From NCBI RefSeq assembly GCF_003334385.1, contig NZ_QOWN01000053.1: DNA of 31,720 nucleotides. One strand, written 5' to 3'. Below, in pieces: positions 20,221-20,938 of the stretch. Origin of the DNA: Escherichia coli (lineage in GTDB: Bacteria > Pseudomonadota > Gammaproteobacteria > Enterobacterales > Enterobacteriaceae). The translations under genes were made by a program, and so were the position numbers. The notes under the pieces are model-generated. The model made no database searches. It worked only from the letters and a program-made list of their open reading frames with translations, and was not told the origin of the DNA. Within the stretch, counting starts at the first letter, position 1, and the number at the start of each line of letters is the position of its first letter.

Positions 20221-20251
20221 TGTTGTCGTCAACATACCTTGAATGTATATA
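20221..20251 (+). promoter_or_regulatory. Putative toxin-antitoxin promoter with palindromic operator
   Basis: TGTTG-tcgt-CAACA palindrome overlapping a TTGTCG -35; TATATA -10 at 20246-20251, 17-bp spacer. Confidence 0.35.
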
Positions 20252-20262
20252 ACAAATTTGTT

Positions 20263-20604
20263 ATGTTTACTCTCATGAACTACATTATCGAATACTACAG
20301 TGACGAGGTTGAAGCTGAGATCCTTTCTCTTCCTGAGACCTTACAAGCCCGGTACATTCGGTACACGGAGAAAATGCGTATTTACGGAGCTAATCTTGGT
20401 TCCCCGCATACAGAGGCATTTGGCGACGGTTTGTTTGAAATCCGCCTTAAGGGCTCGGAAGGCATAGGGCGTGTTTTTTACTGCACGCTAAAAGGAAAGC
20501 GAATCATTATGTTGCATAGCTTTGTAAAGAAAACGCAAAAAACTCCACCTGCCGAGCTTAGAAAAGCTGAAACCAGAATGAAGGAGGTTAAGCATGACTG
20601 GTAA
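20263..20604 (+). CDS. Type II toxin, RelE/ParE-superfamily (Gp49/HigB-like, about 113 aa)
   Basis: C-terminal ...RVFYCTLKGKRIIMLHSFVKKTQKTPPAELRKAETRMKEV matches the conserved C-terminal block of Gp49-like toxins; overlaps the downstream HTH gene by 11 bp. Confidence 0.65.
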   Translation: MFTLMNYIIEYYSDEVEAEILSLPETLQARYIRYTEKMRIYGANLGSPHTEAFGDGLFEIRLKGSEGIGRVFYCTLKGKRIIMLHSFVKKTQKTPPAELRKAETRMKEVKHDW

Positions 20605-20902
20605 ACGTACCCCACCTACCATGACACACGATGAAATGGTAGAAAAAATGTTGTCTAACCCCGCAGTAAAAGCAGAATACGACGCCATCGCCGATGAATT
20701 CGCACTACTTGATGAAATGCTGGCAGCACGAAAAGAAGCTGGCTTAACCCAGGCTGAAGTTGCTGAACGTATGGGAACAAAAGCGACTGCGATAACCAGA
20801 ATGGAAAGCAATCTTGCATCAGGTACAAGCGGCCCATCATTTGCCACACTGAAAAAATTCGCCCGTGCTACAGGGAAAAAACTCCAGATCCGCTTCGTTT
20901 AA
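20594..20902 (+). CDS. XRE-family HTH antitoxin (HigA-like, 102 aa)
   Basis: HTH signature LTQAEVAERMGTKATAITRMES; AAGGAGG SD; toxin-first, antitoxin-second order. Confidence 0.7.
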   Translation: MTGKRTPPTMTHDEMVEKMLSNPAVKAEYDAIADEFALLDEMLAARKEAGLTQAEVAERMGTKATAITRMESNLASGTSGPSFATLKKFARATGKKLQIRFV

Positions 20903-20912
20903 CTCTCCACTA

Positions 20913-20938
20913 CCGCGCCGTCATTCTGGCGGCGCTTT
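20913..20938 (+). terminator. Weak intrinsic terminator after the antitoxin gene
   Basis: GCGCCG-tcattctgg-CGGCGC followed by TTT. Confidence 0.35.

Follow-up and report, generated by a model that had tools for sequence, protein, structure and literature searches.

Two short overlapping genes run against the direction of phage transcription in an Escherichia coli prophage. Do they form a self-contained toxin–antitoxin cassette and, if so, to which family does it belong and from which signals would it be expressed? We addressed these questions in a stretch of 31,720 nucleotides (assembly GCF_003334385.1, contig NZ_QOWN01000053.1; hereafter the window) from a lambdoid, Stx-phage-like prophage of E. 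coli. An earlier interpretation of this DNA (the sequence-only reading) had proposed that a RelE/Gp49-like toxin and an XRE antitoxin lie antisense in its nin region. Our analysis makes it likely that this cassette is an autonomous type II toxin–antitoxin module of the Gp49/HigB (tad-ata-like) branch of the RelE/ParE superfamily, carried as a 'moron' that is expressed in the lysogen. That confidence attaches to the kind of module; each step of the mechanism set out below is held less firmly.

The early-right operon of the prophage lies on the minus strand and comprises cro, cII, O, a DnaC-like (P-like) loader, DUF1627 and DUF977, then Ant, NinB, NinE, RusA and NinH. The toxin and antitoxin open reading frames (ORFs) are both on the plus strand, antisense to this operon, and overlap by 11 nt (ATGACTGGTAA), exactly the arrangement of two overlapping genes against phage transcription that had been described. 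Both ORFs are genuine, and encode a Gp49/HigB-like toxin and a helix-turn-helix (HTH) antitoxin of a known, already annotated family. Indeed, RefSeq names the products 'type II toxin-antitoxin system RelE/ParE family toxin' (109 aa) and 'helix-turn-helix domain-containing protein', and in phage PhiR5_2 (PV340546; 99.6% identical) the pair is labelled HigB and HigA. The full cassette is present in only 22 of 5,426 complete E. coli genomes. A prophage beside ynfG in E. coli strain G1/2 is 99.7-99.9% identical to the window over the region compared, and an 84% identical copy of the cassette is found in the Shigella phages POCJ13 and 75/02 Stx. Strain FDAARGOS_943 carries a 79% identical copy, together with its isrK region, at a different position in the nin region.

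The family assignment of the toxin is strong. It matched Pfam Gp49 (PF05973) over model positions 2-90 of 90 (E 6e-27, 94 bits), which was the domain predicted for the first ORF, and PHROG 2523 (E 3e-42); PF05973 was the only Pfam family found in it, with no match to PF05015 or PF09907. A protein database yielded 2,354 homologues at E <1e-3. The best 120 of these are 65-98% identical to the toxin, all 120 contain PF05973, and their hosts include Enterobacterales, methylotrophs, Sphaerotilus, Propionivibrio and others. Across Gamma- and Betaproteobacteria the toxin keeps 65-79% identity, and an alignment of 36 homologues contains 27 invariant positions. When the cassette proteins were compared with PADLOC, neither gave a full-length match to a component of a listed defence system; toxin residues 49-99 matched the C-terminal end of NsnC (E 5e-8), and there were weak HTH matches.

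An AlphaFold (AF2) model of the toxin, built on the 36-homologue alignment, had a predicted local distance difference test score (pLDDT) of 86 and a predicted template modelling score (pTM) of 0.80. Its elements (strand 4-7, helices 10-17 and 21-37, strands 46-50, 53-58, 66-73 and 76-83, helix 92-108) compose, in the model, a RelE (BECR) fold: an N-terminal strand, two helices, a four-stranded antiparallel sheet and a long C-terminal helix. The closest structure in a Foldseek search of the PDB was Streptococcus pneumoniae HigB (6AF4; E 5e-7, TM 0.74), followed by Mycobacterium tuberculosis HigB1 in its free and ribosome-bound forms (7NBU, TM 0.77), and then by RelE, YafQ and YoeB. A sequence search of solved structures also returned the S. 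pneumoniae HigB-HigA entry (6AF3/6AF4) as the best match. The sequence-only reading had offered to give way if the toxin ORF showed no similarity to the RelE/ParE fold; since the model matches both HigB and RelE folds, that interpretation stands.

The model was complemented by a profile alignment with M. tuberculosis HigB1 (HigB-TAC, Rv1955; 7AWK, 7NBU). Both proteins have a Gp49-like RelE fold that includes a long C-terminal helix (Foldseek TM 0.77-0.78), and all seven catalytic residues of HigB-TAC have equivalents in the window toxin, yet identity is only ~18%. Toxin K85 aligns with K95, mutation of which abolishes cleavage by HigB-TAC, and E55, R57, R66, F83, Q88 and K89 align with the proposed catalytic residues E66, R68, R77, F93, Q98 and K99 (PMC9098466). 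Six of the seven equivalents (E55, R57, R66, F83, K85 and K89) are invariant in the 36 homologues. By analogy, these equivalents make ribosome-dependent cleavage at A-site codons the likely activity of the window toxin. The HigB-TAC system has a SecB-like chaperone as a third component; the window cassette contains none.

The second ORF likewise bore out its predicted XRE/HTH domain, matching Pfam HTH_3 (E 1e-10) and PHROG 1373 (E 3e-36). The HTH occupies residues 44-98 and is preceded by an N-terminal extension of ~40 aa. TIGR02607 (HigA) was not among the matches in an NCBIfam scan. The best PDB match was HigA of S. pneumoniae (6AF3); that both proteins of the cassette find their best match in one entry, 6AF3/6AF4, supports the idea that they form a cognate complex. 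In all 17 homologous loci examined the antitoxin gene lies downstream of the toxin gene and overlaps it by 4-23 nt, and in most of them its Shine-Dalgarno sequence is kept as GAAGGAGG, GAAGGAGA or GAAAGAGG. Gene pair, overlap, Shine-Dalgarno sequence and the operator described below are thus conserved across phyla-level distances. The toxin-first order, which had been likened to that of HigBA modules, is indeed the rule for Gp49 toxins (PMC11980606, Table 1; PMC5906591).

Genes resembling the antitoxin also occur elsewhere. A gene ~71% identical in DNA sequence to the antitoxin half only (window 20577-20896), with the annotation HTH/XRE regulator, was found on 141 Salmonella plasmids, most of them large and conjugative; at the sensitivity of the plasmid search no match to the toxin was seen on them.

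The toxin ORF has three candidate starts (20137, 20263 and 20275) and a common end at 20604. The toxin gene had been placed at 20263-20604; the ORF and its end were upheld, and the start moves to ATG 20275. The RefSeq coding sequence (WP_016232083.1) begins at the equivalent of this codon (MNYII...), the PHROG 2523 alignment begins at residue 5 of the longer ORF, and the alignment of 36 homologues upholds an MNY start. We rejected ATG 20263 as the start because it falls within the predicted -10 hexamer, TATGTT, because one related locus lacks it (L035; related loci are cited by number where they need to be told apart), and because homologues and RefSeq begin with MNY. Its conservation in frame is explained by its being part of that hexamer, at a 12-nt spacing from ATG 20275.

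A natural allele bears on the same codon. In 6 of 17 near-identical copies, all with an intact antitoxin gene, the substitution G20277A converts ATG 20275 to ATA. Across 745 bp (20196-20940) this is the sole difference of these copies from the window, except that two of the six add one synonymous change. The carriers (L001, L016, L017 and L096-L098) comprise PhiR5_2, two viral contigs and E. coli strains from Mexico, China and the NCTC collection; for these copies RefSeq calls a truncated toxin of 76 aa (WP_233010624.1). The probability that a single random substitution would hit this codon is ~0.4%, and the position of the change fits both 20275 as the real start and selection against an active toxin. 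A further copy (L015) has, instead of G20277A, the change M34I at an invariant position of the toxin.

To define the expression signals we compared 80 viral and 7 genomic loci that encode homologues. Upstream of the toxin start lies a 16-bp perfect palindrome, ATAACAAATTTGTTAT, the sole 8+8 perfect palindrome in the window (0.54 expected by chance). In most homologues, over a range of 38-100% identity, its core, TAACA-N4-TGTTA, precedes the toxin start by 4-12 nt; a search of the window for this core with up to one mismatch gave no second copy. In one clade (L063-L080) both half-sites have changed together, to TAGCA...TGCTA, and the recognition helix of the HTH reads TTASAVSR in that clade as against TKATAITR otherwise. 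The palindrome overlaps the predicted -10 hexamer of the cassette promoter, and we infer that it serves as an autorepression operator.

The predicted promoter, TTGAAT and TATGTT separated by 17 nt, was recognised by direct reading of the sequence. Between its -10 hexamer and ATG 20275 there are 7 nt (TATGTT-TACTCTC-ATG), and the layout TTGxxx-17-TATGTT/TATATT/TATTAT-(6-7 nt)-ATG is met again in seven diverged phage lineages as well as in Photorhabdus, Methylospira and Sphaerotilus. No locus with this recurring layout has a Shine-Dalgarno sequence before the toxin ATG. So short a distance between the -10 and the start codon implies that the toxin would be translated from a leaderless or near-leaderless mRNA, given a transcription start at the predicted site. 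An alternative plus-strand promoter that would use the TGTTG-N4-CAACA palindrome, TTGTCG (20223-28)-17-TATATA (20246-51), was rejected: a 7-nt insertion in POCJ13-type copies breaks its spacing, and TTGAAT-17-TATGTT is kept everywhere.

The sequence-only reading had assigned the cassette a different promoter-like element, built around a TGTTG-N4-CAACA palindrome. That palindrome is present (TGTTG-TCGT-CAACA), but the operator and promoter of the cassette do not lie there. Palindromes of the 5+N4+5 type are numerous (54 in the window against 31.6 in shuffles), and a consensus promoter scan gave no plus-strand promoter that uses this one. It is invariant in the flank of three different cassettes, described below, and absent from other lineages of the same toxin–antitoxin family. 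Since the -35 hexamer of a divergent promoter, that of the small RNA IsrK, lies inside it, we assign the element mainly to the neighbour. The proposed downstream terminator fared similarly. The hairpin exists, but it lies outside the exchanged segment (20234-20911) and so is not owned by the cassette. It follows the different cassettes of two other phages (L003 and L095) at 96-97% identity, and homology with a further prophage (L005) ends at 20935. The hairpin is thus the right boundary of a cassette slot and part of a shared flank that is kept after all three fillings. A terminator scan did not call it because its U-tract is only 3 nt long; plausibly it acts as a weak terminator for any occupant of the slot.

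The limits of this slot were given by two comparisons. Against phage phiSTEC1589-Stx1c, homology stops at 20233 and resumes at 20912; against Stx2a-converting phages, the corresponding limits are 20234 and 20909. The exchanged segment therefore extends from just upstream of the cassette -35 to 9 nt past the antitoxin stop. Since the left junction falls within the 6 bp that separate the two divergent -35 hexamers, the exchanged unit runs from promoter to stop, which supports the description of the cassette as self-contained. In agreement with this, the same pair, promoter and operator occur at unrelated chromosomal sites in Photorhabdus, Methylospira and Sphaerotilus. In the comparison of POCJ13 with the window the left breakpoint is at 20215, within the IsrK promoter.

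Besides the Gp49-XRE pair of the window, we found two other fillings of the slot. In phiSTEC1589-Stx1c (L003 3131-3860) it encodes a winged-helix protein and its partner, a TumE toxin (Pfam PF20126, E 2.4e-14); experiments support TumE-TumA as a toxin–antitoxin system (PMC10584680). An initial attribution of the TumE cassette to ~190 Stx phages was rejected, as it is found in this one phage record only. In the Stx2a phage examined (L095 2632-3660) the slot holds a ParD-family antitoxin (53.4 bits; cut-off 46.2), a small lipoprotein-like ORF, a remnant and a HigA-family antitoxin (TIGR02607; 87.2 bits, cut-off 47.7), with no toxin gene in the filling. The remnant consists of 71 nt from the 3' end of the window antitoxin gene (20834-20904; 96% identical). 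The two-piece match pattern of this phage is common to most of the ~190 other records that match the flank only. The TumE promoter region (L003 3120-3206) contains three inverted repeats of TGTTG/CAACA type, namely GTGTTG-TCGT-CAAC, which is the element in common with the window, GTTGT-N8-ACAAC, and TGTTGTTA-TCCT-TAACAACA; these may be operators for the winged-helix partner of TumE.

Table 1. Positions in the window of the cassette, its predicted signals and the adjacent module
Feature	Position	Strand	Evidence
Toxin gene, Gp49 (PF05973)/HigB-like, RelE/ParE superfamily, 109 aa	20275..20604	+	Pfam, PHROG, RefSeq, AF2, Foldseek
Antitoxin gene, XRE-type HTH, 102 aa	20594..20902	+	Pfam HTH_3, PHROG 1373, PDB match
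Antitoxin Shine-Dalgarno AAGGAGG, 6 nt before ATG 20594, inside conserved toxin codons M-K-E-V	20581..20587	+	Sequence
Predicted operator, 16-bp perfect palindrome ATAACAAATTTGTTAT, core TAACA-N4-TGTTA at 20250-20263	20249..20264		Uniqueness, conservation
Predicted cassette promoter TTGAAT (20239-20244), 17-nt spacer, TATGTT (20262-20267)	20239..20267	+	Direct sequence reading
Palindrome TGTTG-TCGT-CAACA (TGTTGTCGTCAACA), left flank	20221..20234		Overlaps -35 of divergent minus-strand promoter
Terminator-like hairpin GCGCCGTCA-TTC-TGGCGGCGC, then TTTACC	20915..20935	+	9-bp GC-rich stem, ~-19 kcal/mol with flanks
IsrK sigma-70-like promoter TTGACG (20232-20227)-18-TATATT (20208-20203)	20203..20232	-	10/12 consensus match
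IsrK-family Hfq-binding small RNA with own terminator	20119..20196	-	Rfam RF01394, 69.2 bits (gathering score 50)
C4-type antisense RNA, as in P1/P7 immI	20009..20093	-	Rfam RF01695, 66 bits (gathering score 45)
Antirepressor (Ant/ORF6N) gene	19284..19955	-	PHROG 377 'anti-repressor Ant' E 2.4e-84; RefSeq ORF6N domain protein

The left neighbour of the cassette is a complete module of the P1 immI or Gifsy-1 isrK-anrP type, with isrK, C4 and ant in this order on one strand (Table 1). The -10 of the IsrK promoter ends 6 nt before the first base of isrK, 20196, and the promoter stands back-to-back with that of the cassette. The isrK match overlaps a near-threshold match to the c4-a1b1 target model RF03163 (44.2 bits against 46.7). 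The known P1/P7 immI (c4-icd-ant) and Gifsy-1 isrK-orf45-anrP loci have, like the window, a promoter, an IsrK-type leader RNA with a terminator, a C4-type RNA and an antirepressor (PMC4825925, PMC7313666). These accounts of the two loci mention no divergent toxin–antitoxin pair. In Gifsy-1, IsrK controls translation of the antirepressor and prophage induction (PMC4825925).

The juxtaposition of cassette and regulatory RNA recurs. In the window and in six other loci (L022, L018, L035, L040, L049 and L057) a distance of 75-80 nt separates the 5' end of isrK from the toxin ATG, which is on the other strand, and C4 usually lies downstream of isrK; the isrK match of L049 is sub-threshold (36.6 bits), and in L057 the toxin is only 61% identical and the intergenic region is GC-rich. 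Equivalents of the back-to-back promoters are present in these lineages, with -35 hexamers 4-9 bp apart, toxin identities of 61-73% and very different intergenic sequences. Of 20 representative viral loci, 11 have a C4 or sRNA-Xcc1 (or isrK-type) RNA upstream on the minus strand, far above chance placement, bearing in mind that the loci are not independent. By sequence inspection, the ORFs that follow C4 or sRNA-Xcc1 resemble antirepressors of the Rha, AntA and Ant types; the window Ant is the only one matched to a family. One locus (L018) has two tandem isrK-C4 units, at 2081-2269 and 2737-2925. In many relatives (L049, L057, L058, L062, L047, L090 and L091) sRNA-Xcc1 (RF02221) lies upstream of Rha-, AntA- or ORF6N-type genes, which suggests a C4-like role for Xcc1 in antirepressor control.

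Several other features of the prophage were noted. A second gene antisense to the early operon (21201-21875, plus strand) encodes a DUF4145 protein with an N-terminal CxxC...CxxC motif, which matches PHROG 1305 'DNA binding protein' (E 1e-63) and, weakly, PD-T7-4 in PADLOC (E 0.0026); perhaps this is a further add-on, or a defence gene. Between it and the toxin–antitoxin cassette is a small minus-strand ORF (20957-21202). Two tandem STnc100 small RNAs (RF02076) lie on the minus strand at 16178-16371 (138.7 bits) and 15693-15902 (129.9 bits), between the nin/Q region and a SASA esterase gene, where strain G1/2 has no annotation. In the G1/2 prophage (L004 3805-10017) RefSeq flags the capsid, portal and terminase genes as frameshifted, so that this copy may be defective or may contain assembly errors.

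Among characterised systems, the gp49-gp48 pair of phage N15 belongs to the same Pfam family; its proteins are 43% (toxin) and 34% (antitoxin) identical to those of the window. N15 gp49-gp48 and the tad-ata modules of Paracoccus pAMI2 and SXT share with the window cassette the toxin-first order, adjacent or overlapping genes and an XRE-HTH antitoxin, and in N15, too, the pair is carried by a temperate phage and transcribed divergently from its neighbours. However, N15 gene 49 has a normal AGGAGG site and a palindrome of the form TTTCAC-N6-GTGAAA, whereas the window toxin has no Shine-Dalgarno sequence and TAACA-N4-TGTTA over its -10. The N15 annotation shows no isrK or C4 RNA beside gene 49, although no Rfam scan of that locus was made. 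PF05973 has Gp49 as its founding member, and Tad/Gp49 modules are listed as validated stabilising toxin–antitoxin systems, citing Dziewit 2007 (PMC5906591). The gp49 family, with 22K Pfam entries, is tabulated as ribosome-dependent mRNA-degrading toxins in toxin-then-antitoxin order (PMC11980606).

Comparison with systems named HigBA shows how far that name can be carried over. The S. pneumoniae HigBA complex (6AF3/6AF4) is the best sequence and structure match for both window proteins, at ~20% identity; it is chromosomal and its toxin has a longer N-terminus (141 aa), whereas the window pair is phage-borne. The classical HigB-HigA pairs (Proteus Rts1, E. coli YgjN-YgjM) resemble the window pair in their toxin-first order, RelE-fold toxin and XRE antitoxin, and it is this likeness that explains the HigB/HigA label in PhiR5_2. 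However, the classical pairs are defined by PF05015 or PF09907 together with TIGR02607. Since the window pair matches none of these, the name 'HigBA' is only an analogy. Indeed, the true TIGR02607 HigA found in the same slot of Stx2a phages is a different protein from the window antitoxin.

These comparisons suggest a model for how the cassette would work. In a lysogen, its promoter would be active and autorepressed through TAACA-N4-TGTTA, which spans the spacer and the -10, the antitoxin binding this site either alone or with the toxin as co-repressor. The regulatory model is adopted from the HigBA2 system of an Acinetobacter baumannii plasmid, in which the antitoxin represses the operon promoter, the toxin is a co-repressor and the toxin degrades RNA (PMC5906591). 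HigBA2 has a Gp49-domain toxin and toxin-first order like the window; it belongs to a distant, plasmid-borne subfamily, and details of operator and promoter are not comparable. Transcription would start at or beside the A of ATG 20275, and the leaderless toxin message would be translated inefficiently. We propose that this inefficient start, combined with the strong internal AAGGAGG, yields an excess of antitoxin from a toxin-first operon, and that the excess would neutralise the RelE-fold toxin. Should the supply of antitoxin fail, the toxin would enter the ribosomal A site and cut mRNAs under translation, and growth would arrest; loss of the prophage, proteolysis, or a superinfection that shuts down host expression could be the trigger. 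In the lytic cycle, early-right transcripts would cross the cassette in the antisense direction, which might lower its expression; there is no minus-strand terminator ahead of the cassette, and the hairpin lacks a U-tract on that strand. The pay-off may be prophage addiction or defence against other phages, by abortive infection or exclusion, or both.

How well does an autonomous toxin–antitoxin module stand up against other explanations? To the idea that the ORFs are chance frames, with a coincidental palindrome, promoter and hairpin, we give virtually no credence. Taken individually, TGTTG-N4-CAACA, the weak promoter matches and the hairpin are indeed within chance; but the strong Pfam and PHROG matches of both ORFs, the 2,354 homologues with PF05973 in all of the best 120, the alignment, and the conservation across phyla-level distances of pair, overlap, Shine-Dalgarno sequence and operator already refute it. 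More serious is the suggestion that the two genes form a regulatory pair whose toxin is attenuated or harmless, or that the antitoxin is a decoy which neutralises related defence toxins of the host or of rivals, leaving the toxin dispensable. The ATA allele with its intact antitoxin would be expected on this account, as would the Stx2a slot with two orphan antitoxins, an antitoxin remnant and no toxin. Moreover, this Pfam family includes M. tuberculosis HigB2 and HigB3, which were non-toxic in M. smegmatis or E. coli (PMC9098466), so that membership of PF05973 alone is no proof of toxicity. Nevertheless, the window copy has an intact start, a full-length ORF and an equivalent of every catalytic-site residue, the toxin is strongly conserved, and the loss of exactly the start codon is most simply explained by a harmful protein. 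We therefore regard the decoy or non-toxic pair as improbable. Several observations still count against an active, autonomous module. For this subfamily, everything from toxicity, neutralisation and RNA cleavage to DNA binding and the transcription start is a prediction. The toxin scores 21.8 bits against a cut-off of 62.85 for the NCBIfam equivalog TIGR02683 (upstrm_HI1419 RelE/ParE toxin), to which it is related without being a member. The cassette promoter matches the consensus at 8 of 12 positions, below the scan threshold, and was not called; in Arsenophonus the distance from -10 to ATG is 4 nt, and the layout of the L063-L080 group misfits a leaderless start. Finally, the presence of the start-codon-null allele in several strains and in PhiR5_2, apparently a functional phage, indicates that the toxin is dispensable there, and all G20277A copies may descend from one mutation event.

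A further question is whether the module is autonomous at all, or whether the Gp49-XRE pair is functionally coupled to the IsrK/C4/antirepressor module. Occupancy by the antitoxin or the complex, decay of the antitoxin, or activity of the cassette promoter, would then modulate the antirepressor and hence prophage induction, the pair acting as a stress sensor. The back-to-back layout is kept across lineages whose toxins are only 61-73% identical, C4 or sRNA-Xcc1 with antirepressor-like ORFs recurs upstream in 11 of the 20 representative viral loci, and IsrK is known to govern antirepressor translation and Gifsy-1 induction (PMC4825925). Tn3-family transposons are also described as siting Gp49-type modules at a divergent regulatory region (PMC7157771). 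However, the same IsrK promoter stands beside unrelated cassettes (TumE with its winged-helix partner; the ParD- and HigA-family genes), and the same pair and operator occur in loci without IsrK, for example beside sbcB in Photorhabdus and among Mrr/PIN genes in Sphaerotilus. Gifsy-1 IsrK, conversely, has no such toxin–antitoxin neighbour (PMC4825925). The centre of the operator is ~60 bp upstream of the IsrK start, outside the core elements of that promoter, with no second copy in the window, and shared ancestry of a composite unit, or a preferred site of insertion, could account for the linkage. Functional coupling thus appears doubtful to us, and by default we take the IsrK linkage to reflect a preferred docking site or a composite unit inherited as a whole.

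As one more toxin–antitoxin module the cassette contributes little: it belongs to a large family, has the usual gene order and fold, and is already named by annotation pipelines. What is gained is a corrected toxin start and a well-supported predicted operator, TAACA-N4-TGTTA, for a widespread subfamily. A leaderless toxin message set against a strong internal ribosome-binding site for the antitoxin would offer a simple explanation of how a toxin-first operon provides antitoxin in excess. The exchange slot, the back-to-back IsrK promoter and the start-codon-null allele give useful context. If the coupling reading were true, the site beside the IsrK promoter would more generally be a dedicated docking site for toxin–antitoxin cassettes in Stx-type phages. 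If the juxtaposition with the IsrK promoter were functional, it would tie a toxin–antitoxin module to prophage induction; this recurring pairing of promoters is the only possibly new aspect of the locus. The slot itself, from 20233/20234 to the hairpin, is relevant to the stability of prophages and to how phages compete in pathogenic E. coli.

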